Below the pieces are notes generated by a model that did not search any database, had not been told where the DNA came from, and was given only the letters and a program-made list of their open reading frames with translations. Made by a program: the position numbers and the translations under genes. A DNA stretch of 64,000 bases from Candidatus Kuenenia stuttgartensis (GTDB lineage: Bacteria > Planctomycetota > JAKEIC01 > DYIT01), in the NCBI GenBank assembly GCA_020723505.1, contig DYIT01000008.1, forward strand, positions 14,579 through 78,578, written 5' to 3'. Shown in pieces: positions 1 through 61,403 of the stretch (positions are counted from its first letter, which is position 1; the number at the start of each line of letters is the position of its first letter).

Positions 1-141
1 GTCGTTTTCATGTCCGGGTATACCGACAACGCGATTCATCATCATGGCGTCCTCGATCCCGGGACGGCATTCATGGAAAAACCCTTCTCCCAGGCCAGCT
101 TGACGGTAAAAATCAGGGAAGTGCTGGGCAAAGGGGAGTAG
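1..141 (+). CDS. C-terminal end of a response-regulator receiver (REC) domain protein, 5'-truncated by the window edge
   Basis: Frame 1 reads VVFMSGYTDNAIHHHGVLDPGTAFMEKPFSQASLTVKIREVLGKGE*. The FMSGYTD...PG.AF..KPF....L...IR.VL pattern is the beta4-alpha5 end of CheY-like receivers and is often the C-terminus of hybrid sensor kinases. Confidence 0.6.
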   Translation, partial: VVFMSGYTDNAIHHHGVLDPGTAFMEKPFSQASLTVKIREVLGKGE

Positions 142-310
142 GCCGAATACCTGCACGGTCGCCGTCGCATCGCAGGTTTCCCAGATTTCCTTGCGCCTTT
201 ACGTCCGCGTTTCCCCGGAACCGCTTCTACGGACATAACTTCTGAATCGGACATGGCATGTGCCTTGCCCAGCGAGTTGCTAGTCTTCTCCGCGCGCGCA
301 GCGCGTGGAA

Positions 311-357
311 TAACGCTGACGAGCCGTTGTACTTCTAGACTCCGCTCGTCAGCGTTA
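311..357. terminator. Bidirectional hairpin between convergent genes
   Basis: Perfect 14-bp inverted repeat TAACGCTGACGAGC / GCTCGTCAGCGTTA with a 19-nt loop. It lies between the stop at 139-141 (+) and the stop at 355-357 (-); the right arm overlaps the TAA of the DUF4956 gene. No clear U-tract. Confidence 0.4.
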
Positions 358-1056
358 CAGGTCGATTTCCTGGAACCCGGTGACGACGGTGACTTTCTGG
401 CCGCCGTTCACCTTCCTGACCTCGTCCATGAGGTCCTCTTCGCGGGTCTTCCTCATGAGCCGGACAGTGTAGACAACCTCCCTCGTCCCGTCGGCGCTCA
501 CCGTCTCGACCGAGACCAGCGCGGCCGCGTCCGCAAGGCGCTCGAAAATCGGGGCGAGGAGCGCGTCCGGGTCGGCGGCCGCCGGGAACCTGGCCCTGAG
601 GATGCGCTCGCGGAACTCCATTGCGAACAGGTCGAGCTTGTGCATCGCGAGGATAATCGCCGAGATGACGATCGCGCTGAACGCCCCCAGCAGGTAGAAG
701 CGCGTGCCGCAGGCCATGCCCACGGCCATGGCGAGGAACAGGAAAGCCACGTCGCGGCTTTCCTTCACGGCGTTGCGGAACCGGATTATCGACAGTGCTC
801 CGACAAGGGCGAATGCCCTTGCGATGTCCGATCCTATGACAAGCATCACGAGACCCACCACCGTCCCCAGGATGATGAGCGTATGGGCGAAGGACTGCGA
901 ATACGAGATTCCCTTGTGCGTCCGGCGGTATGTCCACGCCACGACCAGGTTGAGGACGAAGCTCAGGAGGAGAACTGCCCCCACGTCGAAGGCGGTGAAC
1001 CTGCCGCTGAGATCCCCGAACCTCGCGAGTTCCTTCAGGAATTCGTCCATATGCAC
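355..1056 (-). CDS. DUF4956-family polytopic membrane protein
   Basis: 233-aa ORF with several hydrophobic helices and the signature ALSIIRFRNAVKESRDVAFLFLAMAVGMACG that I associate with DUF4956. It lies downstream of a VTC-domain gene. A second in-frame ATG at 1050 follows AGGTG and may be the real start. Confidence 0.75.
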   Translation of the reverse strand: MHMDEFLKELARFGDLSGRFTAFDVGAVLLLSFVLNLVVAWTYRRTHKGISYSQSFAHTLIILGTVVGLVMLVIGSDIARAFALVGALSIIRFRNAVKESRDVAFLFLAMAVGMACGTRFYLLGAFSAIVISAIILAMHKLDLFAMEFRERILRARFPAAADPDALLAPIFERLADAAALVSVETVSADGTREVVYTVRLMRKTREEDLMDEVRKVNGGQKVTVVTGFQEIDL

Positions 1057-1210
1057 CTATAAACCGGACAAGCCGGAATCCGACCCCGTCTCGAATTTAC
1101 GATACCCCGCCCGCCGCCTCATTTCAAGGCAGCGTCGCGCGAGCCCGGCGCGAACGGGCAGAAGCCGCTCATGGGCGAAGGCCCGTTTGCGGGCAGGCGG
1201 CACCGGCTCT

Positions 1211-1978
1211 TCATCCGGAATCCCCCCGGCCAGGCGCCGGATAGTATCCCGCGAATTCCCGGAAACCGGCCCTCGACCTCTCGAGCCCCAGGCAGTACTT
1301 GCTGATTCTCATCATCGAGAAGTCGTGTGCGGCGAGCAGGTTCGCAATCCACCTCGGCGCCTTGTCGTCAATCTTCACTTCCAAAATGCAGCTAGAAGGG
1401 TGGAGGAACCTCCGGCCCCTGAGCCCGGCTTCCACGTCGAGCGCATGGGCTCTCGCGGTCAAATCCGTGTCGAACGTCACCCTGAGCCCCTCGTCGTACT
1501 CCCCTCCGACGAAAGCCCGGCGCAAGTAAGAAATCACGCATGCAGGTCCCAGCCGGAACGCCTCGACCAGTGACCGGACCTCCCACGCGGCGGCTCTTTC
1601 CCCGGCCTCAAGCGCATCGGGATCAAGCTCTCCCGCGCAGAGCGCCCTGGCGGACTCGAGGTCCATTTCGAGCCTGGTCTTCTGCACCGTCCTGTCCGTC
1701 CTCCGCTTTATTTCGACCCACGCCCTGCCCGAATCCGGTAACCCCGGCCACGGGTAGATTCTGATCCTGAGCTTCCTCCTGTTCCTGAGCCCGTCAATCT
1801 TTTCCCTGTAGAACCGGAAGTCCGGGCTGTCGTAGTAGAGGCTCGTGACCCGGTAGAAGCCCTCGCCGCTGCCGTGCGGATCGGGCTTGACGAACGGGAG
1901 GAGATCGGACATGAACGCCTTCGCCCTGAGGGCGTCCACCACGTACTTGAGCTCGAACCTGTTGGCCCGGTGGAGCAT
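1211..1978 (-). CDS. VTC-domain (polyphosphate-polymerase-like, triphosphate-tunnel) protein
   Basis: From the internal Met the product reads MLHRANRFELKYVV...SLYYDSPDFRFYREKIDGLRNRRKLRIRIY...VEIKRRTDRTVQKTR, showing the RFE.KY, SLY.D and EIK motifs of VTC/TTM-fold proteins. The track start at 2038 adds 20 Arg/Gly-rich residues overlapping the upstream gene and is rejected. The ATG at 1978 overlaps the upstream stop (TGATG). Confidence 0.8.
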   Translation of the reverse strand: MLHRANRFELKYVVDALRAKAFMSDLLPFVKPDPHGSGEGFYRVTSLYYDSPDFRFYREKIDGLRNRRKLRIRIYPWPGLPDSGRAWVEIKRRTDRTVQKTRLEMDLESARALCAGELDPDALEAGERAAAWEVRSLVEAFRLGPACVISYLRRAFVGGEYDEGLRVTFDTDLTARAHALDVEAGLRGRRFLHPSSCILEVKIDDKAPRWIANLLAAHDFSMMRISKYCLGLERSRAGFREFAGYYPAPGRGDSG

Positions 1979-2547
1979 CAGCCCTTCCCCCCCCCGCCCG
2001 CCGACAGGACCTGCATTCCTGCCTTGAGCCCGCCGCATCCCCCGGAATCTTCAAGCCTGATTTCGATGAGCATCGAGGACCGGAGGCTTTCGGGGATTTC
2101 AAAGTCGACCTCCCCGGATTTTTCCGCCGAAATCCGGACCTCCTCGGCGTCCCCGGACAGGATGATTGCGGCGGGCCGTGGCGGGCCGGAAGGACGCCAG
2201 CGGAACTTGAGCCTCGCGGCTTTCGCCGGACCGGGCGCGATGAGGAGGTACGCGGCCTCGGTCTCAATCCATCCCTCCGTGTTGGCGCTGAGTATCCTCG
2301 CTTCCGCCCCGTCCAGGATTGCCGGGGAGAGGTCGGGGTGGCTGCGGAGCGTGTCGCGAAGGAGGCGGAGGTCACCACTGGAAAGGCACTGTTTCTTTCC
2401 GATTTTGAGCTCGTGGAGCAGCTTCCAGACCCTGTCGAGCCCGGGCTCGCGCAGCCCCCATGCGAAGAAGACGGCCGCGAATGCGGCTGTTCCGCAGAGC
2501 CACAGGAATCCGGCGCTAGGGAGCCTGCTTTTCAAGGGGAAATCCAT
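1978..2547 (-). CDS. Hypothetical membrane-anchored protein in the CotH-VTC operon
   Basis: 189-aa ORF with an N-terminal hydrophobic segment (FLWLCGTAAFAAVFFAWGL). Its start is 1 nt after the CotH stop and its stop overlaps the VTC start, indicating translational coupling. I recognise no family. Confidence 0.55.
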   Translation of the reverse strand: MDFPLKSRLPSAGFLWLCGTAAFAAVFFAWGLREPGLDRVWKLLHELKIGKKQCLSSGDLRLLRDTLRSHPDLSPAILDGAEARILSANTEGWIETEAAYLLIAPGPAKAARLKFRWRPSGPPRPAAIILSGDAEEVRISAEKSGEVDFEIPESLRSSMLIEIRLEDSGGCGGLKAGMQVLSAGGGGKG

Positions 2548-2548
2548 C

Positions 2549-5461
2549 TCAATTCCTCATCCTCCCGACCAGCCCGGCAAGATCATCCCACTTCTCGAGG
2601 CCCAGGACGTGCTTCAGGAGATGGCCGAGCGAATCGTCCGGCGGAAAGTCCGTCATGACGCGGAGGAAGCCCGGCGCGGACCCGTCGTCGGACTTGAAGA
2701 CCCCGCCGCACTCCACGGCGTCGAGCGTCTCGCCGCGGACCTCGCTGCGGCCGCCGTACTTCGGACTCCTGGTCTCGAGCTCGACCGCAAGCCCGCAGCG
2801 GAAGAACAGGCTGCATGCGACGACCGCCTCGGACCTGCTTTTCACGAGCAGGCCCTTGCGGCAGGAAGCCGCCAGGCAGCCGCGGATTTGGGCCGAGGAT
2901 CTCTCCCCCACCGAAATCGCGTTTCCGCCCGCCCCGGTCACGATGCAGTCCAATATTTCCGCGGTCGAAGCCATCATGTCCACCGCCTCTTCGCCGGGGT
3001 TCCGGAAATTGCAGGACGTGATTCTCGCCGAGGAGAATTCGAGGTCCAACGCGTCCGCTTTCATGCCCTCGAACCGGCAGTTCTCAATCACCGCGTCCTG
3101 CGCGTATCCCAGGTGAACCGCGTCTGCGGAATCGCGGGCCGCGCGGAAGACGCAGCCGGAAATCACGACACCGCCGGCATCGTGGACGTTCAGGGCCGCG
3201 GGATACGACGCGAGGTTCCATTCCGGCGCGGTCGCGCCCTGGATCCGCACGCATCGCAGGACCGATCCCGAGGCCCCGCGACCCTGCAGGGCTATCCCCC
3301 CGAAGCTGGTCCCGCCCGCAACCGGCTCGATTGAGACAGGCTGTTCCTCCGTCCCCGCCGCCTCGACCCTGCCTCGGAAGACCAGCGACGCGCCGGGCGA
3401 AAGCCTTATCGCGGTGCCCGCTGCGATGAAGACCGGCTCCGTTTCGCGGAAAACGCGGGTCTTCTCAATCAGCACTTCCCCCGGGCCGAGCCGCACCGGC
3501 AGCCCGCGCCTCTCCTCTAGGAGCCACGGATGGACGTCCGTCTCTTCGGCCGCGAACCGCTGCACGCTCCCGGGCGAGCCGGCGGGCGCCGGAGCCTCGG
3601 TCCCCTTCCTCCAGTCCCCCGCGCGGACCGTCCTTTGAAACGACCATCCGGTCACCTCGTTGCGGAACTTGAGATTCGCGGCCTCCATTCCTTCGCCCGC
3701 CTCTATGAAGAACCTGTAGATCCTCGGAGCGGGCGAGATTGTCACGTTGCCCGCCTCGGGGGACGGATCCGCGCGCGCCACGGTTCTCGCCGCGGGGATG
3801 AGCAGCCCCGGGTCCTCCGCGAGCGAGCCGCCCGAGGATTCGTCCGCCAGGGCCTGGTCCGCCCCCGGGTCGAAGGCCCCGTCGAGGTCGAGGTCGCGCC
3901 AGAGCCTCCAGCCGCCTCCCACTCCCGGACCCGGCCGGAAATCCACTCCCGCGGATTCGAGCCTGTAAGCCCCGCGGCCGGTCACCTCGACCTCGAGCGC
4001 CGCGGCCGCTTCCCGTGCCTCTTTCCTTCCCAGCCTCAGCGTAATCCCGTCCTCCTCAAGACCGCGCAGGAGGAACGCGCTGCGCTCCGCGAAGGTCTTG
4101 ATCTCGGATTCGAGAATCAGCGCCTGGCGCTCCTCGTCCATGGGCCTGACCAGGCGCCTCAGTTCCCTGTTGACCGGCGGAAGCAGCCTGTATGCGTCCC
4201 AGTACGGGTCGGCCGCGTACTCCGGGGCCGCGAGCTTGATTTGACCAAGCAGCCGGCTGCGGATTTCCGACACCGCGCAGGGGCCGTTCAGAAGACCATA
4301 GAGGATGCGGTTGCGCAATGCGAGGTATCCCGGAACATGCGCCAGCTTGAGGCGCAGCGGATGCTCCACGGGCTGGAACAGCGGCTCGTGCCTCCATCCG
4401 CGGAAGTTCCAGCCGATGGGCTCGAATCTGCCCTTGTACGCGTCGAAATAAATCTTGTGGTTCGACCTCGCATCGTGCTGGTTGCCTCCGAATGCCGCGT
4501 CCACGGCGTCGAACGCCGCGAATTTCCCGAGGTCCAGCTCGTCCTTCGCGAAAGCCGCGAACTCGGCTGCGCCCGCCTTGTTCACCTTTTCAATCAGCCT
4601 TTCGATTTCCGCCATGCCGCCGGCCTTGCCCGGTCCGGAGGAGGCCGCCTTGGTCCATGCGCGCGGATCGCGGAAGAGCGTCCCGAGACCCGTCGCCGAA
4701 TCCACGGGCGCGTCGTCGCCCGAGAATATGCTCCCGGGCATTCTGCCGTTCTTCCTCAGCAATCCGGCCTCAGCGTGGCCCGAGAACAGGTAGACTCCCA
4801 TGGGGCGCTTGTTGATCACCACGCGCACAAGCCTGCTGTCCGGGGCCAGCACGCCGAGGCCGCGGAGGACTTCGAGAACAACGGGTTCGCCGACGCTGAT
4901 GGGCGCGACCTCGTTTATCAGGTTGAACACGTCCTCGCCCTCGAGCGCGGCGCCTGAATCCATGGCTATCTTCAGGGATTTCTGCGGATGCGCCCAGTGC
5001 CAGTGAGGGCCGCCCCTCACCCTTGCCCGGGCGGGGAGGAACTGGCCGCCCCCTTTCGAGACGAAGACCGGCACGTAGGGCCGCTGCGAATCCGCCGAGA
5101 GGTTCGAAGAGAGCGTCTGGCTGTCGGCGCGGCTAATCAAGAGCGAGTAGACCGGGAGCGAAGGGGGTTCAGGCGGCGGCGGCATGGACATGCGGCGGAT
5201 GTCCTGGCGCAGCCTGTCGTGAAGGTTGAGATGGAAGATCTCGGTGGTCATCGGACAGGCGGCGCCTGCGGCGTCGCAGTACGCGGCATGGGTGGACCAT
5301 GCTCCCCAGGCGAGCCATCCGCAGAGGAACAGCACCGGAGAGGAAATCATGAACGCAGTGAGGAAGCGGATGCGCCACAGCGATCGGAATCCTCGGTTTC
5401 CGGTATGACGCCGCATTGCCCGGGAAACTCCGTTATAATGGCCGCCCGGAAACACACACAT
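2549..5461 (-). CDS. CotH-family atypical kinase fused to a C-terminal parallel beta-helix domain
   Basis: 970-aa ORF with an N-terminal anchor (FLTAFMISSPVLFLCGWLAWGAW). The CotH region includes NHKIYFDAYKGRFEPIGWNFRGW and FDAVDAAFGGNQHD. The C-terminus has beta-helix repeats (NCRFEGMKADALDLEFSSARITSCNFRN ... GGNAISVGERSSAQIRGC). The start may be Met16 (5416). Confidence 0.85.
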   Translation of the reverse strand: MCVFPGGHYNGVSRAMRRHTGNRGFRSLWRIRFLTAFMISSPVLFLCGWLAWGAWSTHAAYCDAAGAACPMTTEIFHLNLHDRLRQDIRRMSMPPPPEPPSLPVYSLLISRADSQTLSSNLSADSQRPYVPVFVSKGGGQFLPARARVRGGPHWHWAHPQKSLKIAMDSGAALEGEDVFNLINEVAPISVGEPVVLEVLRGLGVLAPDSRLVRVVINKRPMGVYLFSGHAEAGLLRKNGRMPGSIFSGDDAPVDSATGLGTLFRDPRAWTKAASSGPGKAGGMAEIERLIEKVNKAGAAEFAAFAKDELDLGKFAAFDAVDAAFGGNQHDARSNHKIYFDAYKGRFEPIGWNFRGWRHEPLFQPVEHPLRLKLAHVPGYLALRNRILYGLLNGPCAVSEIRSRLLGQIKLAAPEYAADPYWDAYRLLPPVNRELRRLVRPMDEERQALILESEIKTFAERSAFLLRGLEEDGITLRLGRKEAREAAAALEVEVTGRGAYRLESAGVDFRPGPGVGGGWRLWRDLDLDGAFDPGADQALADESSGGSLAEDPGLLIPAARTVARADPSPEAGNVTISPAPRIYRFFIEAGEGMEAANLKFRNEVTGWSFQRTVRAGDWRKGTEAPAPAGSPGSVQRFAAEETDVHPWLLEERRGLPVRLGPGEVLIEKTRVFRETEPVFIAAGTAIRLSPGASLVFRGRVEAAGTEEQPVSIEPVAGGTSFGGIALQGRGASGSVLRCVRIQGATAPEWNLASYPAALNVHDAGGVVISGCVFRAARDSADAVHLGYAQDAVIENCRFEGMKADALDLEFSSARITSCNFRNPGEEAVDMMASTAEILDCIVTGAGGNAISVGERSSAQIRGCLAASCRKGLLVKSRSEAVVACSLFFRCGLAVELETRSPKYGGRSEVRGETLDAVECGGVFKSDDGSAPGFLRVMTDFPPDDSLGHLLKHVLGLEKWDDLAGLVGRMRN

Positions 5462-5583
5462 TGGATGCCGGACGGGAGATACCTTAATTTATATCCGTTT
5501 GTCCCGGATAATTCACGGGTGATCGCGATTATCCGTACCGGCGACCGGCTGCGGGGGCCGCCGGGAAGGCCTCGTTTCTCGTT

Positions 5584-5630
5584 TGTGGGAGCCGCCGGGA
5601 AGGCGTTGCTGCCAAAGGCGGCGATAATCA
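5584..5630 (+). repeat. Conserved-arm hairpin motif, copy 1 (TGTGGGAGCCGCCGG-N16-AAGGCGGCGATAATCA)
   Basis: The two arms are identical to those at 43099-43146 (+) and 42948-42990 (-); the loops differ. GCCGCC and GGCGGC can pair. It ends 29 nt before the TTG start at 5659. Confidence 0.7.
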
Positions 5631-5658
5631 GATTCGCACAATTGGTGAGGAGACACCG

Positions 5659-7989
5659 TTGGGAAAGGAAACGAAGGGCATCCTGGGTCCGGGGGCAAGG
5701 CGGGCGGCGGGTTTTGCGACTTGCTTTCTGGTCGGATTCATCACGGCGACATGGGCGGCGGGGGCGGAGAAGAAGGAAAAGCCCGCTCCCGAAGCCAGGT
5801 GGGAGGCGGTATTCCCCGAGGATCAGGTGCTCGAAATCCGCCTCGAGATTGCGCGCGAGGACTGGGAAAAGATTATGAGGAGGCCTTTCGAGAACGTCCG
5901 TGCCCGGTTCCGCTGCGGCCAGGTCGCAATCGACGCCATTGCCGTCAGGGTGAAGGGCAACTCGTCGGCAGGGGTGCCGAGCGAACGGAAGTCGCTCAAG
6001 CTCGATTTCGACGCGTACGACAAGAAGGCCTCTTTCCACGGCGCGGTCAAGCTGAACCTGCACAACGCGTTCAAGGACCCCACCCTGATGCGGGAATTCC
6101 TCGCTTACCGGCTCTTCAAGGCCGCCGGGGTTCCATCGAGCCGCGCGGGGTTCGCGAGGGTCTTCGTCCGTATCGGGGACGAAAAGGAGAGATATCTCGG
6201 CCTCTACACCACCGTCCAGCAGGCCGACCGCCTGTTCCTGCAGCAGAACTTCAGGAACGCGGAAGGGAACCTGTGGAAGGGGGAGGCTGGTAGCGATTTC
6301 ACGTGGTTCGGCGATGATCCCGAGCCGTACGGGGGATACGAGCTCAACTCGAACGGCAAGCGGGGGGACTATTCCCGGCTCATCGAGCTCGTGAAGACCG
6401 TCAACCAGGCGCCGGACTCCTCTTTCGCCGCTGAAATCGAGAAGCGCCTCGACGTGGACAGGCTGCTCTCCTATATCGCGGTCAACACGCTTCTTTCCAA
6501 TCTCGACAGTCCTTCCGGCAGCGGTCACAACTATTACCTTTATCATGACCCGGAAGCGGACCGGTTCACGGTAATCCCGTGGGACCTGAACGAGGCTTTC
6601 GGCAACTTCAAGATGCAGGAAGGCTCGGACATGCTGGAGATGTCGATTGACGAGCCGTATTCGGGCGAAAAGATACTGTTCAAGCGGATCCTCTCCGTCG
6701 CCAGGTTCAGGGACAAGTACCGGCAGATTCTCAAGACCATCTGCTCCGGACCGTTTTCGCCGGCGAACATGAACCGGGAAATCGACCGCCTGGTGAAGCT
6801 CATAGGCAGGGCTGTCGAGGAGGACTCGATGAAGCCCTATTCCACGGATGATTTCCGCAGGGGCGTCGAGTCGGACATCCAGGCGAGGGGTCCGTTCGAC
6901 AGGGGCGGCGGGATTCTCGGGCTCAAGTCGTTCGTCGCCGGAAGAACCACGTCGGTGGCCGAGCAGCTAGCCGGCAAGTCCAAAGGGGTGAAACCCCGGG
7001 GCAATTCCTTCATGCCTCCTCCTGCATCCACCGGGCCGGTGAAGGCGGCCCCAGCGCTCGCAGGAGGCGCTCTTTTCATCCTTTCCGACGAAGGCGTGCT
7101 GTCCAGGTTTCCGCTCGATACCATGAAGACCGCGGCTTCTGCCATTCTCCCGAAGGCGGTTCAAATCGCGGGACGCGGCATGCCGGACAGGCCGGGCGGG
7201 GATGAGATGCTCAAGCGCATGGACCGCGACGGGGACGGCAGGATTACGCAGAAGGAATTCGAGGGGCCTCCGGAGGTGTTCAAGCGCCTCGACAGGAACA
7301 GGGACGGGGCGCTCGACAGGGATGAAATAAGGTCAGGAGACAGGCGCGGAGACGACCCGGGCAGGCGCCAGGGCCCGGAACCCGGGGGCGAGAGCCGCGA
7401 GATGGCGGTGTACGCCGGGGAAACCGTCGTTGCGGTGGTCGGCCCGAACACCCTGTACTTGTTCTCTGCGTCCGATCTCTCGCCGCTGGGGCACAACCGC
7501 TTCGGGGAGCCCGCTGGCGGCCCCTTCGACAAGAAGGGAAGGCCGTCTTCCCGCAACGCGCCGTCGGTTTCCGGCGAAGGGGATCTGCTCTGGATTCTAT
7601 CGGGTTACCGCGTCCTGCGCGTTGACCTCAAGGAAATGAAGGTGAAGGCCGACGTCGATCTGCCTGCCGGTCTCGACGGCCGGATGGAGGCGGAGAGAAT
7701 CAAGCGGCTGGACGGCAACGGCGACGGCAGGGTGGACAGGATGGAGTTCAGGGGGCCGCCCGAGATGTTCGACCATGCGGACCGGAATCGCGACGGATTC
7801 CTCGACGCGAAGGAAATCCGGGAGCTTCCTCCGCTGCCCGGGGAGGACAGGCAGGGGGCCTCTGCGAAAATCCTCAGATCCGGCGAAGAGCTCGTGGCAG
7901 TGCTCGGGGATTCGGTCTTCAGGCTCGACCCGAAAACCCTGGAAATCAGGGGAACGGCGAAGCTCGAAAAAGGGAAGGAAAAGAAGTAA
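5659..7989 (+). CDS. Secreted CotH-family atypical kinase with two C-terminal EF-hand pairs
   Basis: 776-aa ORF with a TTG start 6 nt after GGTGAGGAG and a signal-like N-terminus. CotH motifs include VRVKGNSS...SLKLDFD and GHNYYLYHDPEADRFTVIPWDLNEAFGNF. EF-hand loops are DRDGDGRITQKEF/DRNRDGALDRDEI (7201-7332) and DGNGDGRVDRMEF/DRNRDGFLDAKEI (7681-7825). Confidence 0.85.
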   Translation: MGKETKGILGPGARRAAGFATCFLVGFITATWAAGAEKKEKPAPEARWEAVFPEDQVLEIRLEIAREDWEKIMRRPFENVRARFRCGQVAIDAIAVRVKGNSSAGVPSERKSLKLDFDAYDKKASFHGAVKLNLHNAFKDPTLMREFLAYRLFKAAGVPSSRAGFARVFVRIGDEKERYLGLYTTVQQADRLFLQQNFRNAEGNLWKGEAGSDFTWFGDDPEPYGGYELNSNGKRGDYSRLIELVKTVNQAPDSSFAAEIEKRLDVDRLLSYIAVNTLLSNLDSPSGSGHNYYLYHDPEADRFTVIPWDLNEAFGNFKMQEGSDMLEMSIDEPYSGEKILFKRILSVARFRDKYRQILKTICSGPFSPANMNREIDRLVKLIGRAVEEDSMKPYSTDDFRRGVESDIQARGPFDRGGGILGLKSFVAGRTTSVAEQLAGKSKGVKPRGNSFMPPPASTGPVKAAPALAGGALFILSDEGVLSRFPLDTMKTAASAILPKAVQIAGRGMPDRPGGDEMLKRMDRDGDGRITQKEFEGPPEVFKRLDRNRDGALDRDEIRSGDRRGDDPGRRQGPEPGGESREMAVYAGETVVAVVGPNTLYLFSASDLSPLGHNRFGEPAGGPFDKKGRPSSRNAPSVSGEGDLLWILSGYRVLRVDLKEMKVKADVDLPAGLDGRMEAERIKRLDGNGDGRVDRMEFRGPPEMFDHADRNRDGFLDAKEIRELPPLPGEDRQGASAKILRSGEELVAVLGDSVFRLDPKTLEIRGTAKLEKGKEKK

Positions 7990-8259
7990 CTAATTCCACA
8001 CGAAGATGGTGTATCGTTTGCGATGGCCCAGCTGGCGTTTTTCGATACGTGGCACGTAATCGCCAGAGATGCGGAGCACAGTGCAAGGGAGAAGCGGTTC
8101 TTCTGCATCGCGAGAAAGGGGTCAGGTCGACTGTTGACGTTTGTCAATCCAGTCCGGATCGAGAGATTCAAGCATATAAACTCATTCCAGGAATTGGACT
8201 CCCTCCTAATCAGGCAACGGCGCAATCAGGGAATTTCTCGGGGCATTCAAAGTCGACTT

Positions 8260-9615
8260 TCATCGCTTCGTCAAAATGAATTCCGCCAGGTCCGAAATCA
8301 CCTCCTTCGAGACGTGGAGCGGCAGGGTGTATTCCATGGGCGTGGCCTTGCCCTTGCCGTGCATGAAGCAATGATTGAGCGCAGGATAGGATTTGAGAAC
8401 CGCGTTGCTCCGGCCGTCGAACCCCTTGCGCCAAAGGGCGAAGTCCTCCATCGTTACCTGGTAGTCGCGCTCGCCCTGCAGCACCAGAACCGGCTTCTCG
8501 ATTGAGGCAGCCTCTTCAGCCGGCCGGTATGTCCGCAAGTCAATCCAGTAGCGGGCGGGGCACCCCAGGGGCAGCTGTCCCGGCGGGGTGTCAGGGGAGA
8601 GTGAGGGGTCCTTGGCTCTTGCCGCCTGTTCCTTAAGGCGTTCGAGGTTCTTCTTCTCGGTCTCCGAGACGGATCCGTCCAGGGAATAGATGTAGGCGTA
8701 CTGGTCGAGAATCAGGTCTTCGAGCGGTCTGGCCGCGCCTGCGAGCACCACGAACCCGGCCGCGGACGGACAGCGCTTCGCAATTCGGGGAATCATCATG
8801 CCGCCCAGGCTGTGGCCGAGGATGAAGACCTTCGACTTGTCCACGCCGGGGGTCTTTGCCATGAGTTCCGCGGCGAGGACCGCGTCGTCCACGGTTTCCT
8901 CGTTTATCGTGAGCGCTCCCGCGCCCGTGTTCATGGAGACCATCCTCGATCCGTGAACGAGCGTCCTCTTGTCGTAGCGCAGCACGGCGACTCCCGAGGA
9001 AGCGAGGCCCCAGGCGATGTCCTTGAACGGCTTGTTGGGCCCGATGGTTTCGTCCCGGTCGTTGGGTCCGGACCCGTGCACAAGCACGATGGCCGGGAAG
9101 GGGCCCTCCCCCTTGGGCAGCGCAAGGGTCGCAGGCAGCTCCCAACCCTCGGCTCCGAACCTGAGCTCCTTCTCCTCGAACGCCGACTGATCGACGTAGG
9201 ACGGGGCCTTGTACGGCATCTCCTTCCGGGTGGGAACATAGAAGAAGCCCGTTATTCCGCCTTTCATGACGAACGCGACCTTGACGTCGAATCCGCCTTT
9301 TTCGAACTTGCAGGAGACGAACGACACGGGACGATCCTCGTGCATTTCGTTCCGGACCGAGACGATTTCCTTGAACGGGCCGAATCGCTCGATGGCCGCG
9401 GACCAGGCTTCCTTGAGTTTCTCGGGAGGAATCTGCTTCTTGACGCTCTCGTCGATCATTGCAGCTGCGTCCTCGTGTTTGCCCTCGGACAGCAGCGTCA
9501 CGAACTTCCTCGCCGCCTCCTCGAAGCGGCTAAAATCCGGTTCCTGCTTTTCCTGGCCGCTGGAAAATCCGCAGACGGCCGTAAGGAAGAGGAGAAATGC
9601 AATGGCTGATTTCAT
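8260..9615 (-). CDS. Secreted alpha/beta-hydrolase
   Basis: Signal peptide MKSAIAFLLFLTAVCGFSS starts at ATG 9615. The 36 upstream codons in the track ORF overlap the methylase gene and are rejected. The nucleophile elbow ILGHSLGG is present, and the acid/His region (GERDYQV...LNHCF) is consistent with the fold. Confidence 0.8.
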   Translation of the reverse strand: MKSAIAFLLFLTAVCGFSSGQEKQEPDFSRFEEAARKFVTLLSEGKHEDAAAMIDESVKKQIPPEKLKEAWSAAIERFGPFKEIVSVRNEMHEDRPVSFVSCKFEKGGFDVKVAFVMKGGITGFFYVPTRKEMPYKAPSYVDQSAFEEKELRFGAEGWELPATLALPKGEGPFPAIVLVHGSGPNDRDETIGPNKPFKDIAWGLASSGVAVLRYDKRTLVHGSRMVSMNTGAGALTINEETVDDAVLAAELMAKTPGVDKSKVFILGHSLGGMMIPRIAKRCPSAAGFVVLAGAARPLEDLILDQYAYIYSLDGSVSETEKKNLERLKEQAARAKDPSLSPDTPPGQLPLGCPARYWIDLRTYRPAEEAASIEKPVLVLQGERDYQVTMEDFALWRKGFDGRSNAVLKSYPALNHCFMHGKGKATPMEYTLPLHVSKEVISDLAEFILTKR

Positions 9616-10568
9616 GCGTGCTTCCTGAAAGAGTTCGACAATTTCACGCTTTTGAAAAAGGTCGATTTCCGCGGCTGCTTGAATCGCGGTTTTTGCGGTG
9701 GAATCAGTATTGAATTCCGGCATGCATCCGGTCTCATGATGTTCATGGCCTCGAACCTGCGTATGGAAAGGTCCAGGAATTTCCTCTCCGTATCTATCCC
9801 GACGAACCTGCGGCCCAGTGAGACGGCCGCCATGCCGGTTGTCGAGCTTCCGGTGAACGGATCAAGAACGAGGTCGCCCGGCTGCGTCGAGGCGCGTATG
9901 ATTCTCTCCAAAAGCTTGAGGGGCTTCTGAGTCGGATGCTTGCCCTGCTTCTTCTCATCAGGTCCCGGGGCGGTGAGCGACCAGACATCCCGCATCTGTC
10001 TTCCCAGGTTTTCAGCCTTCATTTCCTTGTAGTTGAACACGTGCCTCGATTTCTTGTCCGGAGCTGCCCAGATGATTGTCTCATGCGAATGAGTGAAGTA
10101 TCTGCAGCTCAGGTTCGGAGGGGCGTTGGTCTTGAACCACACGATGGAATTGAGCATTTTGAATCCCAGTTCCTGCATGGCGAAGCCGATTGAATAGATG
10201 GCATGCTGTGTTCCGGAGACCCAAAGCGAGCCGTCTGCTTCCAGCGCGTTTCTGCAAGCCGAAAGCCACTTCCTGTTGAAATCATGATTCCAGGAAACAC
10301 CCCGCGATTTATCCCATTTCCCCTTGTTCACCGAAACCTGCTTCCCCGCATGACAGGTGAATCCGTCATTGGACAGGAAGTAGGGCGGATCCGCAAAGAT
10401 GAGGTCGATATCCTTGAGACCCTGAAGGATATCAAGACAGTCCCCGTGATAGAGGACGAAATAGCCGCGAGCATCCCTGAAATATGGCTTTAGCTTTATA
10501 GGATTCTTGGCGATGCTGCGCTCCCTGGATATTCGATTGTTCTTCATCGCTTCTCGCTTGGGAATCAT
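9612..10568 (-). CDS. Beta-class N6-adenine/N4-cytosine DNA methyltransferase
   Basis: Motif IV DPPY (LIFADPPYFLS) precedes motif I (VLDPFTGSSTTG), which is the order seen in N4/N6 MTase-family enzymes. ATGA overlaps occur at both ends, with the endonuclease stop and with the hydrolase start. The gene is visibly AT-richer than its flanks. Confidence 0.9.
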   Translation of the reverse strand: MIPKREAMKNNRISRERSIAKNPIKLKPYFRDARGYFVLYHGDCLDILQGLKDIDLIFADPPYFLSNDGFTCHAGKQVSVNKGKWDKSRGVSWNHDFNRKWLSACRNALEADGSLWVSGTQHAIYSIGFAMQELGFKMLNSIVWFKTNAPPNLSCRYFTHSHETIIWAAPDKKSRHVFNYKEMKAENLGRQMRDVWSLTAPGPDEKKQGKHPTQKPLKLLERIIRASTQPGDLVLDPFTGSSTTGMAAVSLGRRFVGIDTERKFLDLSIRRFEAMNIMRPDACRNSILIPPQKPRFKQPRKSTFFKSVKLSNSFRKHA

Positions 10569-11242
10569 TCGATTCCGAAGACCTCCTTCATGAACCTCTT
10601 CCTGAAATAGATGGCGACTCTTTTATCACAAAGGGTCTTGCTTAGCACCCTGGAATAGAGCTGCCTGTATGGTTTGGAGTCCTTGGTCCTCAATTGGAGA
10701 TAGACTCCGTTTGAAGTATGGAACTTTCCCGACTTGCAAATGTGTTTATGGAGTTCATCCAACACTTGATTGTAGGAAGATTCGAATTCCATGAACCAGC
10801 GCGTCCCATCCCTTGCATCAATCATGGCGGCATGTGCGATGTACCAATTCCCCGGGTCCTTCGGGACTTTGCAGATAGGTATGATAATCATTCTGCTTGT
10901 CTTCTTGTGGATTGAGGAAGATTTGAAAGGCTGCTTCCTGATTAAATCGTCTATATCGTCCCCGAACTGGTGGATGGCTATTGTTTCCAGAGGATCGCCA
11001 TCGGGTTTGGATTTGTATGTCTTGAGGTCTCCGTCTTCGAAATCAAGCAACTGCGAGCTTTGAGGGAGGCCAATCGCCTTTTCCATCAACTGACCAGCTT
11101 TGCCTTTGTTTTCTCGAATTTCTTCCATGTCAGCATTGGGAATGAATTCACGGAACCTGAGCATCAGGAATGCCTGAATCCGCTCCAATGCCTCGTCGAT
11201 TTTCATGAACTCCAGTATAGTTCGGAGAACTAAAATCGCCAT
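10565..11242 (-). CDS. MutH/Sau3AI-family type II restriction endonuclease (GATC-type specificity inferred)
   Basis: KGKAGQLMEKAIG...LLDFEDGDLKTYKS...GDPLETIAI aligns by eye with E. coli MutH KGWIGVLLEIWLG...EQDFAALGVELKTIPV...GRPLETTFV. C-terminal GVYLQLRTK / IYFRKRFM match MutH GEYLQIRPK / FYLKKNF. It is ATGA-coupled to the methylase gene. Confidence 0.7.
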   Translation of the reverse strand: MAILVLRTILEFMKIDEALERIQAFLMLRFREFIPNADMEEIRENKGKAGQLMEKAIGLPQSSQLLDFEDGDLKTYKSKPDGDPLETIAIHQFGDDIDDLIRKQPFKSSSIHKKTSRMIIIPICKVPKDPGNWYIAHAAMIDARDGTRWFMEFESSYNQVLDELHKHICKSGKFHTSNGVYLQLRTKDSKPYRQLYSRVLSKTLCDKRVAIYFRKRFMKEVFGIE

Positions 11243-14694: not shown

Positions 14695-14728
14695 TTCCAC
14701 ACGAAGCGCGTTCGTGCTTCATGTGGAA
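14695..14728. repeat. REP-like hairpin TTCCACACGAAGC-N8-GCTTCATGTGGAA
   Basis: 13-bp arms with 1 mismatch. It belongs to the same family as 14776-14809 and 56112-56145. A half copy (TTCCACACGAAG) lies at 7994-8005. Confidence 0.7.
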
Positions 14729-14775
14729 TTCGTGTACGAGAACGTGGACGGGAACAAGTACGCGAAGCGGTTAAT

Positions 14776-14809
14776 CCGCACGAAGCGCGAGGCACCATGC
14801 TTCGTACGG
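14776..14809. repeat. REP-like hairpin CCGCACGAAGC-N12-GCTTCGTACGG
   Basis: Second member of the CACGAAGC...GCTTCGTG family, 48 nt after the first. Its loop GCGAGGCACCAT resembles the loop GCAAAGTCCCAT of the 56112 copy. Confidence 0.65.
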
Positions 14810-14845
14810 ATTATTCACGTTCCTTCGGGCGTTATCCGCGTTAGT

Positions 14846-17800
14846 ATGATGGATGGGATTTCGACCGGACATGGTGATGAAAAGGGGGGGAGGGTGGCGG
14901 TTCCGGACAGGAAAATCGGGGGCAGGTTCGCGCTGCTCGCGAGACTCGGCGGCGGCGCGACGGGCGAGGTCTGGCTGGCGGAGGACGGGGCTGCCGGACT
15001 CAGGACCGCGGTGAAGATATCGGGACCGGATGCCGGATCCCGGTCGTCGCTCGAGGCGGAGGCGGGCATTCTCAAGGCCTTGTCGCATCCCGCCGTGCCG
15101 AAGGTCCTTGCCGAGGGGACGGGCTGGTTCGCCATGGAATACGCCATGGGTTCGAAGCTTTCCAAAGCGATGGCCTCCCCGCTGCCTGCGGTCCAGGCAT
15201 GCTCGCAGATTGCCCGCGCGCTCGAACACGTGCACGGCAGGGGCTTCGTGCATGGCGACGTCAACCCCGAACACATACTGGTCTCGGAGGAAGGGCGCGC
15301 CATGCTCGTTGATTTCTCCCACGCTTCCGGCCCGGGTCTCGATTCCCGGCCCGGCAGGGGGACCCCGGGATTCATGGCGCCCGAGAACCTGATGGGGCTC
15401 GAACTGGGACCCGCTGGCGACGTCTATTCCCTCGGCGCGTCCCTCTATTGCGCGCTTTCCGGCGCTCCCCCATATCCCGCAACGGGCGCAGGCGAGGAAG
15501 CGGCCCGGATGAACCGGGAAGCTCCGAAACCCGTCCATCTCGTCAATCCCGCAGTGGACGAAAAGCTCGCCGCCGCAATAATGAAGGCAATCCATCCCGA
15601 CCCGAAGGATAGGTACAGGGACGCCGCGGAGTTCGCCGGCGCCCTGGAGAGGTGGGCCGACCTGCGGGGCGGCGCATTCGTGCCGGGCAGGATGTCCGGA
15701 AGATCGGAGGATCTCGACAGGGCGCTCAGAATCCACGCATGCGCGAAACCCGGGACCGGAATCGTGCTCGCCGTCACCGGCTCGAAGGGGGTCGGCAAGA
15801 CGAGGTTCATCGAGGAACTGCATTCATCAATCAGGGCCCTTGGGCTCGCGTCGATGCTCGTGAGATGCCGCGGGCTTTCAGATGCCGAAGCGGAGAAGAG
15901 GATATCCTGGGCGCTGGGGACGCTTGCGGCATCCTCCCGGCGGGCCTCGGCGCCGGGTCTTCCGCCGGCGCTGCTGGTATGCGGGCTTGAGAACGCCGAG
16001 CCCTTGCGCATGGCGCTCAAGGGCGCGGGCTCTTCTCCTTGTCCGTTCGCGGCTGCGTCGCTTCCTCCCGGCACTGTCCTGCCTTCAATGCCCAAGGACT
16101 TCAGGGTCGAGCGCATAGAGCTGCTTCCGCTCAAGCATCGGGAAATCGAGGAGGCGGTGAACGGCAAAGCGTGGGCGGGAGCCTTTTCCCCGAAGGTTCT
16201 CGAATCCATCGTCGCGGTTTCCGCCGGTCTTCCCGGCGTGGCCATGGGCATCGTCGAGGCCGCGATGCGCGCGACCGGGAAGCAGGGCGGGATTCTGTCT
16301 CCGGTTCTTCCCTTCGAAGCGGGGGAAGCAGGAGCAGGGGCGTTCGCGGGGAGGGTAATCCGGATGGATTCGCAGGCGAGGTCGGCTGCCGAAGCGGTCG
16401 CCGTTCTTGGCGAGGAGGCCTCGGAAGAGACCGTCGCCCGGACCTCCGGGCTCGGGACCAGGCGGGCTAAGATTGCCGTGGAGAAGCTCTGTTCCGCCTC
16501 GGTCCTGGTGAGGCAGGCCGGCATGCTGAGGTTCGCCGTGCAGGGAGCGGAGGAATCCATTCTCGCGTCGGCTGAACCCGGCATGCTCAAGGCCATGAAT
16601 CTCGCCGCTGCGAAGGCCCTCAGGAAGACCTCCGGGCCGGTGCAGAGGATTGCTCTCCACATGCTCAGGGCCGGTGAAATCTCGGAAGGGCTCGGCATGC
16701 TCTCTGCGCATCCGCAATCTCGCGCGCAAGCGGAGGTGGAGGATGCCCTCAGGCGCGCTGCTGATTCCCTGAAGGGCAGCCTCGAGGGTGCTCAGGCCGA
16801 CGCGGCGCTGGGGAGGATGCTGGTGGCGGCCGGGAAGCACGGGGAGGCCGAAGAGAGGATCCGGTCCGCGCTCAGGTGGGGCGGGTTGAGCGGAAAAGAG
16901 AGGGAGAACCTCGCCATCGCCGCCGCCGATACCGGTCTTGCGATTGGGGACTTCGCCGGCGCCATGGAGGCCCTCTCCGGCATTCCGCGGTTTCCGGCCG
17001 GACCTGCGCGGGCGCTCCTCGCCGCGGCCGAGGCGAAGAGGGGGCTCGGGAGATTCGAGGAGGCGAGGGAGGAACTTGGATTCGCGCTCGTTTCCGGCGG
17101 ACTTGCGCCGGAGGAGACAGCAGGTTGCCACCACGTCCTCGGGAAGATAGCGCTCGACCTCGCGGAGATTTCCAGGGCCGAGGCCAATTTCGCGAAGGCG
17201 CTGAATCATGCTGAGGGTTCGGGCGACTTCCGCCTCGAGACCTCGTGCCTCGTCAATCTCGGCCTTTGCAGCATAGCCGCCGCCGATTTCGCCGAAGCGG
17301 GAAGCAGGCTTCTCAGGGCGGGCGAAATCAACATGCGGAGGAAGGCGGGACTCGAGGCCGAGATTGACCTTGCGACTGGAATCGTCTCGGCCATGACCGG
17401 CGACTCTCCAGGCGGATTCGCCGCGCTTGCAAGGGCTCTTTCCGCCTCGCGCCGGGGACTCAGGCCTGCCCGCGGGACGGCGCTGTCCGCGATAGGCAAG
17501 GCGTATTCAGCATCCGGGGGGCTGAGAAAGGCAGGAAGATATCTCGCGGCCGCCAGGGAGGCGCTGCGCGCGGCCGGCGCTGTTGCCGAGGAGCTCTCGG
17601 CCTCGACTAGGCTCGCGCTTGTGCTTTTGAGGGAGAAGAGGTTCCGGGAGGCGGATGATCTCAAGGCGGATTTCGAAGGCAGGACCGAGCCGCTGTTCAG
17701 GGCGGTCTTCCTGCTGGTTGACTCCGAGGTCCATCTGTCCCGCGGGGACGCGGCGCGGGCGCTGGATTCCGCCCGCGCCGGGATTGGGTGCCTTCCTACG

Positions 17801-19775: not shown

Positions 19776-20858
19776 GGGGTCAGTCCCCGCATTTAAACAT
19801 TGACTGCCAGTTGAGAAGCGTGCGGAGCACCATGGCAAGAAAACCGCGCATCGAATACGCGGGTGCGTTCTACCACGTGATGAGCAGAGGCAACCGGGGA
19901 GACTCCATTTTTCTTGATGACACAGACAGGGAACTCTGGTTGAGAACTTTAGGTCAGGCATGCAACAAGACAGGCTGGAGGGTGCATGCATACGTACAGA
20001 TGGTGAATCATTATCATCTGCTTCTCGAGACGCCTGAGCCGAACCTGGTAGCGGGAATGAAGTGGATGCAGGGAACATACACCCAAAGAGTCAACAGAAT
20101 CCACAATCTTTATGGTCACCTTTTGCAGGGGCGGTACAAGGCCCTTCCGATTGACACTGAAGACGGGAAGTGGTTCCGGACGGTTGTTGATTACATCCAT
20201 TTGAATCCTGTTCGCAGCGGTCTTGTCCAAGCCGGCAAAGACATGCTTGGGGATTATGTCTGGAGCAGTTTCAAGGAGTACTTATCGAGTCCGAATCGCC
20301 GTCCTTTCTGGCTCACTGTCAACCTGGCGCTTGGGGAACTCGGGCTCGAGGACACCCCGAAAGGCCGATCGAACTTTGAGTTGTACACCGAGAACCTGGC
20401 GGAAAAATTGGAAACCAGAAATGGGGACGCACTGAGGCAGGGATGGGAAAGGATTCGCCGAGGGTGGTTTCTAGGCGATGATAGTTTCCAGGAGACCCTC
20501 GTCATTCATCTGCCCGGATTGCTGAAAGGAAAGAAGGCGGAATCATTCGGAGGCGCGGCGAAGCGAGAACATGGGATTCGTGAAGCCCAGAAGCTGCTCG
20601 CAACTGGACTGCGCATCCTCCGTCTCGATGCAGGGATGCTTCCCGGTATGAGGAAAGGAAGTGAGGAAAAGGCTTTTCTAGCATGGCTGCTTCGGAGAAG
20701 AACGACGGCGGACAGCAACTGGATTGCGGGAAAGATATACGCCGGACATCATGGGAACATAAGCCGCCTGGTAAAGCAGGCGGAATCGAAAGAAGCAGGA
20801 CCCATGGGGAAATGGAAGCGGGAGGCCGGAAGAATGCTTAAATGCGGGGACTGACCCC
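19776..20858 (+). mobile_element. RAYT-like unit: Y1-transposase gene bracketed by inverted 25-nt REP-like repeats
   Basis: Left repeat GGGGTCAGTCCCCGCATTTAAACAT (19776-19800). The right repeat at 20834-20858 is its reverse complement with 1 mismatch and overlaps the last codons and the stop of the gene. Confidence 0.7.
19832..20854 (+). CDS. IS200/IS605-type Y1 (HUH) transposase-like protein, REP-associated (RAYT-like), with a long C-terminal extension
   Basis: ARKPRIEYAGAFYHVMSRGN, HUH motif NHYHLLLE and catalytic-Tyr region VVDYIHLNPVRSGLV. The C-terminal ~150 aa include WIAGKIYAGHHGNISRLV, which resembles a DnaA-C-type HTH. ATG 19832 is preferred over TTG 19811. Confidence 0.8.
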   Translation: MARKPRIEYAGAFYHVMSRGNRGDSIFLDDTDRELWLRTLGQACNKTGWRVHAYVQMVNHYHLLLETPEPNLVAGMKWMQGTYTQRVNRIHNLYGHLLQGRYKALPIDTEDGKWFRTVVDYIHLNPVRSGLVQAGKDMLGDYVWSSFKEYLSSPNRRPFWLTVNLALGELGLEDTPKGRSNFELYTENLAEKLETRNGDALRQGWERIRRGWFLGDDSFQETLVIHLPGLLKGKKAESFGGAAKREHGIREAQKLLATGLRILRLDAGMLPGMRKGSEEKAFLAWLLRRRTTADSNWIAGKIYAGHHGNISRLVKQAESKEAGPMGKWKREAGRMLKCGD

Positions 20859-32177: not shown

Positions 32178-32217
32178 AGGCTCCTCGAAAAACAATGGTG
32201 CAAAACGCCGTTAGTAT

Positions 32218-59108: not shown

Positions 59109-59250
59109 CTGCGGGCTTTCAATTTAGCTGTAGACAAAGTATCATAATCAACCTACAGCTTCAAGTGAAGATTCCCGCTTTTCAAGATTTCAGGATACAG
59201 GATTCAAGTCCGGAGGCGGGGTAATCCGCGTCCTTCGGGAACAAACCGGA

Positions 59251-60546: not shown

Positions 60547-60616
60547 TTGATTCCCCTTCACTGTGCATGTCGTAACTGTCTTCCCAATTAACGCAAGGAG
60601 GAACCGATCCAAGGCT

Positions 60617-61393: not shown

Positions 61394-61403
61394 TCGTACC
61401 TCA

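Follow-up and report, generated by a model that had tools for sequence, protein, structure and literature searches.

The operon described here lies in a window of 64,000 nucleotides (nt) from Candidatus Kuenenia stuttgartensis (Planctomycetota; assembly GCA_020723505.1, contig DYIT01000008.1, positions 14,579 to 78,578 of the forward strand); "the window" refers to that whole stretch. Four minus-strand genes encode a long CotH-family protein, a membrane-anchored product of an open reading frame (ORF) of unnamed family termed ORF189, a stand-alone VTC-domain protein and a DUF4956 membrane protein, while a second CotH gene, with EF-hands, is transcribed divergently. The order of the four genes recurs in several bacterial phyla. 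The locus may be a membrane-coupled polyphosphate (polyP) synthesis module that serves exported CotH-family proteins, and the chances of this reading are judged to be about even. The gene set is already in print but unexplained; the window adds a variant and statistics, and is not a first sighting.

Conservation of the gene order

A profile of 32 VTC homologues identified 551 relatives in contigs from one genome per species, and the best 80 loci were taken with flanks of up to 10 kb. As the closest relatives, these 80 loci form a biased sample, and gene-order counts were limited to loci with enough flank. They belong mostly to Myxococcota, with Planctomycetota, Aminicenantes, Sericytochromatia/Cyanobacteria, Latescibacterota, Treponemataceae, Anaerolineae and Desulfocapsa also present. 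When all ORFs of the loci were searched with phmmer, homologues were identified for DUF4956 in 75 of the 80 loci, for the long CotH in 69, for ORF189 in 66 and for the EF-hand-type CotH in 26. DUF4956 was directly downstream of VTC in 68 of 70 loci, the ORF189 homologue was directly upstream of VTC in 66 of 76, and the long CotH stood upstream of that homologue in 59 of 64. All four genes stood in the window's order in 51 of 60 loci, which span Planctomycetota, Myxococcota, Aminicenantes, Sericytochromatia and Latescibacterota. Such recurrence of one gene order in related loci from several phyla places the arrangement far beyond chance. The divergent layout with two CotH genes is found in the closest relative, and three loci (Treponemataceae, Anaerolineae and an unclassified bacterium) have a shorter order of VTC, DUF4956 and a short CotH.

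The genes of the operon in the related loci are translationally coupled, with overlaps between CotH and ORF189 in 48 of 52 loci and between ORF189 and VTC in 61 of 66. In the window, the junction between the 970-residue and 189-residue ORFs reads TGA-G-ATG, which is a 1-nt gap, and the junction between ORF189 and VTC reads TGATG, in which the stop codon of ORF189 overlaps the VTC ATG. The distance from VTC to DUF4956 is 154 nt to a GTG start and 160 nt to an ATG start. The five ORFs, their order and strands, and this tight coupling were all present in the sequence as given in the preliminary description.

Co-occurrence was also surveyed with three Pfam models across the window's phylum, of which 401 genomes were evenly sampled. 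Of these genomes, 110 had a VTC match, 115 a DUF4956 match and 128 a CotH match. VTC and DUF4956 were both present in 105 genomes, while 5 had VTC without DUF4956, 10 had DUF4956 without VTC and 281 had neither; the corresponding numbers for VTC and CotH were 99, 11, 29 and 262, and since genomes of one phylum are related, these contingency counts overstate independence and Fisher p-values are not quotable. All three families were present in 97 of the 401 genomes, about a quarter of the sample. At 138 VTC places, DUF4956 was within 1.5 kb at 91 and within 6 kb at 111 in total, was 6-20 kb away at 1 and more than 20 kb away at 1. The other 25 places had no DUF4956 on the same contig, and many such contigs are short. 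Among 14 control genomes, three matched all three families (Bacteroides thetaiotaomicron, Corynebacterium glutamicum and Methanosarcina acetivorans), and Bacillus subtilis gave a match for CotH only.

The pattern is unambiguous: VTC and DUF4956 form one unit, which is the tightest and most general link of the set, and CotH is the usual third partner. Both the neighborhood conservation and the statistical co-occurrence are thus strong, and the co-occurrence of this trio in other bacteria, mentioned in the preliminary description, was borne out in several phyla. In an excerpt, PMC12345266 states that the trio is not found outside Pel loci; contrary to that statement, the trio is widespread outside them.

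The VTC-domain protein

The VTC protein matched Pfam family PF09359 with an E-value of 2.2e-45 (155.5 bits, cut-off 23) across profile positions 1-232 of 235, which is full-length, and 1672 homologues of similar length were found. The hydropathy scan identified no hydrophobic segment in it. A phmmer search of PDB with the protein gave no match. The family profile of 32 sequences matched the catalytic domain of yeast Vtc4 (3g3q, E-value 1e-7) and entries for the full VTC complex. Vtc4 numbering was taken as the 3g3q chain index plus 185, an offset anchored on the RLR motif, to which R264 and R266 were assigned. In the profile-to-3g3q alignment, Vtc4 residues R264/R266, K281, Y359, R361, R373, E426 and S457/K458 correspond to window residues R71/R73, K91, Y151, R153, R166, E200 and S226/K227, respectively, and all of them are invariant across the 32-sequence alignment.

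The protein thus keeps the tunnel residues expected of a VTC enzyme, including the equivalents of R264, R266, E426 and K458. The roles of the remaining Vtc4 tunnel residues are reportedly those worked out by Hothorn et al. in 2009. The R264A/R266A/E426N form of yeast VTC is described, in the part of PMC9911596 available, as the inactive form used for cryo-electron microscopy, and Lys-458 of Vtc4 is termed catalytic in an excerpt of PMC4641920. According to the same excerpt, only Vtc4p produced polyP among the tunnel enzymes assayed there.

The DUF4956 membrane protein

The DUF4956 protein is a member of PF16316 (E-value 1.7e-18, 67.4 bits, cut-off 30.6). The Pfam MgtC match is weak (20 bits, cut-off 31.4), and the NCBIfam MgtC/SapB model matched residues 65-221 with an E-value of 2.9e-6 and 27.1 bits, far under its cut-off of 214. 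Four strong hydrophobic segments were identified by the hydropathy scan. An AlphaFold2 (AF2) model with a predicted local distance difference test score (pLDDT) of 78 has helices at residues 20-44, 51-71, 75-91, 98-115 and 119-139, followed by a C-terminal beta-alpha domain at 148-223. This domain matched the C-terminal domains of MgtC proteins 2lqj (Z 8.5, root-mean-square deviation 3.7, 86 residues aligned) and 7qa5 (Z 8.4) as well as ACT domains. DUF4956 is thus a distant relative of MgtC/SapB by architecture and C-domain fold, and not a member of that family. For the membrane part of the model, the only matches were helical viral coat proteins (Z 8-9), which were taken as chance.

Conservation in this family is high, with a mean column identity of 70% in 37 sequences, and R78, R90, R92, K96 and D100 are invariant in all 37. 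The four basic residues, R78, R90, R92 and K96, sit on and after the third helix, a placement that supports a membrane-coupled module. From the positive-inside rule, we infer that the N-terminus is outside and the C-terminus inside, and therefore that R90, R92 and K96 would lie at the cytoplasmic mouth.

The CotH proteins and ORF189

The long CotH matched the Pfam CotH family at residues 147-352 (E-value 9e-13, 48.9 bits) and the Beta_helix family at residues 757-885 (E-value 8.9e-12), and aligned with Bacillus cereus CotH (5jd9) at an E-value of 4e-6. A transmembrane segment at 33-51 lies behind an Arg-rich N-terminus in the hydropathy scan. In its family (56 members), the position five residues before the loop Asn, which is the catalytic Asp in kinases, is His in 43 members and Arg in 11, and an Asp follows one position later in 45 of the 56. 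At the position of the PWD metal-binding Asp, the five commonest residues are Asn (21), Asp (15), Ser (6), Glu (4) and Gly (3); the window protein has Asn. D340 is invariant in all 56 members. Because it is non-canonical at two catalytic positions, the long CotH would be either a pseudokinase or an enzyme of different chemistry.

The EF-hand CotH matched the Pfam CotH family with an E-value of 5.9e-68, together with several EF-hand families. It aligned with 5jd9 at an E-value of 1e-20, and the catalytic Asp, loop Asn and PWD Asp were all aligned. Each of its residues D283, N291 and D309 is conserved in 14 of the 17 short CotHs from related loci. An excerpt of PMC7821199 gives D228 and D251 of B. 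subtilis CotH as inactivating positions, and these could be placed on the B. cereus chain, provisionally, by their 23-residue spacing. The EF-hand region resembles lanmodulin (PDB 6mi5/8fns at an E-value of about 1e-4; NCBIfam LanM at 1e-10, under its cut-off). The hydrophobic N-terminus of this protein, which is below the scan threshold, is read as a signal peptide by eye only. The preliminary description had assigned a kinase fold and a signal or anchor sequence to both copies. The first assignment holds in canonical form for the EF-hand copy, whereas the long copy departs from that form at the two catalytic positions; for the second, the anchor of the long copy was identified by the hydropathy scan, and the signal peptide of the EF-hand copy by the visual reading. 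Besides the two in the window (contig 29 of the source genome), a third CotH is encoded on contig 7, and lamin-tail proteins are found elsewhere in the genome.

ORF189 matched no Pfam or NCBIfam family. The hydropathy scan identified one N-terminal hydrophobic segment at residues 9-27. A profile search found 259 relatives in 1.84 billion representatives, and the best 150 of these 259 are 109-223 residues long. The N-terminal helix and a short helical region are conserved in the family, with P10, W30 and L37 invariant, and the C-terminal half is variable. The AF2 model (pLDDT 87) has a transmembrane helix, three short helices and a jelly-roll. A Foldseek search of PDB with this model gave no match at E-values up to 1e-3. 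VIA-align returned generic, middling jelly-rolls like those of carbohydrate-binding modules (CBM), namely AftD (Z 8.1), BcsB (Z 7.2) and CBM35 (Z 7.0), and the ESM Atlas gave only unnamed clusters and DUF7024 at 0.92, a recognition under the reliable level.

Proposed function and alternative explanations

The proposed polyP module would work as follows. A cytoplasmic VTC-type tunnel enzyme would make polyP from ATP in partnership with DUF4956, the MgtC-like inner-membrane protein. The part of DUF4956 would be either to conduct polyP outward during its synthesis, in the manner of the membrane portion of eukaryotic VTC, or to hold the enzyme at the membrane and regulate it by means of the ACT-like domain. 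At the outer side of the membrane, ORF189 and the anchored CotH and beta-helix protein would receive or act on polyP, or on a surface polymer or protein modified by polyP, and the divergent, canonical EF-hand CotH kinase would be active in the same compartment. ATP is scarce outside the cytoplasm. The long CotH and ORF189 appear to point outward, with one N-terminal anchor each. The VTC-DUF4956 link, the exported CotH partners and, in double-membraned relatives, a phosphate-type porin or other outer-membrane parts point the same way. Delivery of polyP to the envelope is favored because it is the simplest mechanism that uses all parts.

Several points weigh against this reading. First, tunnel enzymes with near-identical tunnel centers can be hydrolases or tripolyphosphatases, according to the excerpt of PMC4641920, and for this reason polymerase activity of the window protein is given as putative. 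A search of the available literature turned up no study in which a bacterial VTC-domain protein was characterised or seen to make polyP. Secondly, the profile alignment to Vtc4 starts at profile position 40 and leaves the K200 strand uncovered, and the first 55 residues of the VTC protein gave nothing usable against PDB. K200 is reportedly the lysine of the N-terminal strand (Hothorn 2009). An invariant N6-R7-x-E9-L-K11-Y12 motif is likely the counterpart of this strand, as mapped by motif only. Third, no longer or fused VTC relatives, including a VTC-DUF4956 fusion, were found at E-values up to 1e-5, which is weak evidence.

Fourth, the membrane partner is unrelated to the Vtc1-type membrane domain, and its closest relative with a name, MgtC, is known as a regulator, not a channel. 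Fifth, the long CotH is without the canonical catalytic Asp and the metal-binding Asp and may be inactive. Sixth, the spacer between VTC and DUF4956 in the window, at 154-160 nt, is an outlier, because none of 74 relatives has the two genes more than 100 nt apart; they overlap in 50 of the 74 and are within 20 nt in 16. The spacer has no second copy in the genome, its fold is not unusually structured (z -0.67), it contains one promoter-like match, no more than chance, and it gave no Rfam match. Seventh, no porin O/P gene was found in the window or in the 89% complete genome, so that no outer-membrane route is visible here. Lastly, the relatedness of the surveyed genomes, noted above, limits the weight of the phylum counts.

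The "split VTC analogue" of the preliminary description is a fair working model, given that it withstood two of the refuting conditions set there, those on co-occurrence and on tunnel residues, but its membrane partner is MgtC-like and not related to Vtc1. The VTC analogy is functional only, because DUF4956 is not related to the Vtc1-type membrane domain. Nothing here directly supports the idea that the CotH domains use polyP as a donor or substrate. A stronger form of the polyP module would be a bacterial counterpart of the VTC machine, in which the polymerase docks on an MgtC-like pore and threads polyP out as an ATP-independent donor for the CotHs; the long CotH, with His for Asp, would draw phosphate from the polyP, and the canonical EF-hand CotH would act as the kinase of envelope targets. 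This form is considered doubtful.

The envelope module has to be weighed against a role in cytoplasmic phosphate and energy homeostasis, in which the MgtC-like DUF4956 would be a membrane regulator whose ACT-like domain acts as a sensor, VTC would make or hydrolyse short polyphosphates inside, the CotHs would be merely co-regulated and nothing would cross the membrane. The likeness of DUF4956 to MgtC/SapB in its membrane and C-terminal parts, the tripolyphosphatases with the same tunnel center and the description, in an excerpt of PMC12345266, of MgtC as acting on ATP synthase and phosphate signalling would all suit this explanation. In addition, no PPK1, PPK2 or Ppx-GppA was found in the source genome (4.9 Mb, 89% complete), so VTC could supply ordinary polyP. 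However, the absence of PPK1 may be an assembly gap, because the sister genome (G057) has PPK1 and the genome is 89% complete. Across the phylum sample, PPK1 was present in 62 of 110 genomes with VTC and in 170 of 291 without it (odds ratio 0.92); a replacement of PPK1 by VTC was rejected for the phylum, and VTC does not go along with PPK1 either. This independence fits a VTC role apart from the ordinary cytoplasmic polyP pool. Homeostasis also leaves unexplained the exported CotHs, the anchored jelly-roll and the phosphate-type porin in the overlapping operon of relatives, and it is regarded as unlikely.

Another explanation is an accessory module for a surface polymer or exopolysaccharide, in which the CotH and beta-helix would act on a glycan by binding or modification (phosphorylation of the glycan or of its secretion proteins is one example), and VTC and DUF4956 would supply or regulate the phosphate donor. 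This draws on the published occurrences of the gene set. Whitfield et al. 2020 (PMC7112168), in an excerpt, report accessory genes that directly adjoin pel operons: in streptococci and clostridia these are cotH, polyphosphate polymerase, DUF4956 and DUF4832, and in bifidobacteria a diguanylate cyclase/phosphodiesterase (DGC/PDE) gene takes the place of DUF4832. In Streptococcus intermedius, mutants of SIR_1592 (DUF4956 type) and SIR_1594 (CotH) produced less Pel and aggregated less, according to the excerpt of the mBio 2025 study (PMC12345266), which also describes the streptococcal DUF4956 member as an MgtC-type membrane domain with an ACT domain. Thus the functional link, which the preliminary description took to be untested, already has Pel and aggregation phenotypes for two members in print, as well as the published link of the trio to pel. 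In the NELoc-2 locus of Clostridium perfringens, pairs of VTC and membrane-protein genes lie beside CotH, with a chitin-synthase-like gene (PMC2879425).

In the window, the pectate-lyase-type beta-helix of the long CotH and the CBM-like jelly-roll of ORF189, with its weak likeness to BcsB and CBM35, would also suit a polymer-related role; however, the fold matches of ORF189 are generic (Z 7-8). Pfam was run on the larger ORFs of the neighborhood, over 14.6 kb past the left end of the window and 56 kb on the right side, and no glycosyltransferase or Pel family was found among them; a genome-wide pel search was not done. Likewise, when all ORFs of the 80 loci were clustered and representatives of the recurrent neighbors were scanned with Pfam, no polysaccharide-synthesis family was found among the conserved clusters scanned. 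The operon is not within a polysaccharide locus here, and the surface-polymer explanation is rather improbable for this window.

The clustering did identify a porin O/P-like gene (PF07396) in 41 of 61 related loci with enough flank, mostly just upstream of the long CotH. Its representatives matched with E-values of 3e-10, 6e-7 and 4e-4, one of four had no match, and the operon form was seen in Myxococcota. OprP and OprO are described in an excerpt of PMC9769906 as phosphate and pyrophosphate channels, and porin O/P as taking up both under phosphate limitation. Such a porin, the deposition of polyP in a non-cytosolic compartment by the eukaryotic VTC (PMC10657179) and the divalent cations accompanying polyP that the EF-hand CotH could bind would fit phosphate capture and periplasmic polyP storage, a counterpart of the yeast vacuolar store in which CotH and EF-hand proteins would organise a polyP-metal deposit; this is very unlikely, since no Pho-regulon or phosphate transporter genes were found beside the operon or among the scanned recurrent neighbors, the porin was not found in the source genome and the direction of transport is pure inference.

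Features of the locus and neighboring genes

The features of the locus are listed in Table 1. The DUF4956 ORF has an alternative GTG start, which would give 355..1056; the ATG start agrees with the start in all homologues. In the ORF list, the limits of the VTC ORF are either those of Table 1 or 1211..2038 on the minus strand. A promoter scan of the intergenic region between the two CotH genes gave no promoter-like match, promoter and terminator scans of the locus gave matches no commoner than in shuffled sequences, and an Rfam search of positions 1-9000 gave no match. A search of sequencing runs listed no RNA run containing the sequence and one DNA run, probably of the source sample.

Table 1. 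Positions of the genes and intervals of the operon, in window coordinates.
Feature	Coordinates	Strand	Description	Basis
DUF4956	355..1050	-	MgtC-like inner-membrane protein, 231 residues	Pfam PF16316
VTC-DUF4956 spacer	1051..1210	-	Longer than in relatives	
VTC	1211..1978	-	Stand-alone VTC-domain (triphosphate tunnel) protein, 255 residues, candidate polyphosphate polymerase, cytoplasmic	Pfam PF09359
ORF189	1978..2547	-	Membrane-anchored, unnamed family, 189 residues; N-terminal transmembrane helix, short helical region, jelly-roll beta-sandwich	
Long CotH	2549..5461	-	970 residues; signal-anchored CotH-like domain and right-handed beta-helix, non-canonical catalytic motifs	Pfam
Intergenic region	5462..5658	.	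Between the divergent CotH genes	ORF coordinates
EF-hand CotH	5659..7989	+	776 residues; exported, canonical kinase motifs, C-terminal lanmodulin-like metal-binding repeats	Pfam

To the left, the scanned neighbors were an aminotransferase, a U32 peptidase, a MEDS-PAS histidine kinase and a TPR/DUF1570 protein. To the right were an alpha/beta hydrolase, a DNA methylase in a patch of low guanine-cytosine (GC) content, many Ser/Thr kinases and other unrelated genes. Other recurrent neighbors in the related loci were small lamin-tail-domain proteins downstream of DUF4956, a family-less 345-residue protein and short CotHs. In Myxococcota relatives, proteins of 700-1000 residues carry a PPDK_N (pyruvate-phosphate-dikinase ATP-binding) domain, some with a lamin-tail (for example L003:2639-4819, L041:123-3167 and L039:15242-18304); this would place a dikinase-type domain in an apparently exported context.

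Several further genes of the window were recorded. Directly after the EF-hand CotH, a 160-residue ORF at 8023-8505 (+) has a weak BrnT toxin match (E-value 0.0019, under the cut-off). At 9612-11242 (-), an N6/N4 DNA methylase (PF01555, E-value 9e-59) overlaps a 225-residue family-less ORF, and the GC fraction of this patch falls from about 0.63 to 0.45-0.53; because of this drop, the two are probably an acquired restriction-modification pair. In the 1679-residue product of 14714-19753 (+), a Ser/Thr protein kinase is joined to a GAF domain, a sigma-54 activator AAA+ domain and a Fis-type helix-turn-helix; by its predicted domains, this product is an unusual one-protein path from kinase to sigma-54 control. 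A 347-residue ORF at 19811-20854 (+) has an IS200-like Y1 transposase domain (E-value 7e-7) and is longer than the family norm. Two AAA_14/DUF4143 ATPase genes, at 27828-29084 (-) and 32461-33708 (-), stand around a gene for a 978-residue FHA and CAP-domain protein (29259-32195). At 48573-52811 (-), a 1412-residue Ser/Thr kinase has TPR repeats and a C-terminal FGE-sulfatase (formylglycine-generating-enzyme-like) domain, and at least six ORFs in the window have a Pkinase domain. Lastly, a protein with an Eco57I-type restriction-modification methylase domain is encoded at 61404-62804 (-), with an adjoining family-less ORF stretch at 59204-61435 and an ATPase_2/DUF234 protein at 57726-59108; together they may form a defence patch.

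Comparison with known systems

Extracytoplasmic phosphorylation and a polyP route to bacterial surfaces are open problems, and the operon makes both testable. If the polyP module is correct, VTC-type polyP synthesis would not be a eukaryotic speciality, the MgtC-like fold would have a transport-linked role and the mechanism would be one undescribed in bacteria.

The locus can be compared with five known systems. First, with Bacillus CotH (5jd9/5jda), the EF-hand CotH shares the catalytic Asp, the loop Asn and the PWD Asp, whereas in the long CotH the catalytic Asp-Gly is replaced by His-Asp and the metal-binding Asp by Asn. The window CotHs also differ from it in being exported or anchored and not from a sporulating cell. 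Secondly, MgtC/SapB proteins share with DUF4956 a helical membrane domain and, after it, an ACT-like C-domain; DUF4956 differs as a separate Pfam family that is genetically tied to VTC. Third, the window lacks the gene that marks the porin O/P-linked operon form of Myxococcota.

Fourth, the eukaryotic VTC complex (yeast Vtc4/Vtc3/Vtc1; 3g3q, 7ytj and 8i6v) shares the tunnel domain with aligned catalytic residues, and in the window this domain is likewise coupled, in this case genetically, to a small polytopic membrane protein. However, the window protein has no SPX domain and no fused membrane domain, and its partner is MgtC-like, not Vtc1-like. Lastly, the Gram-positive Pel accessory set, for example SIR_1592-1594 of S. 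intermedius as described in part of its source, has the same three families in adjacent genes, with CotH exported and VTC cytoplasmic. The window differs in that its genes are not contiguous with a pelDEADAFG operon, its long CotH is non-canonical and carries a fused beta-helix, and a fourth conserved gene, ORF189, lies between CotH and VTC. The order in the window is thus CotH, ORF189, VTC and DUF4956 with a divergent EF-hand CotH, and the host is a double-membraned planctomycete.

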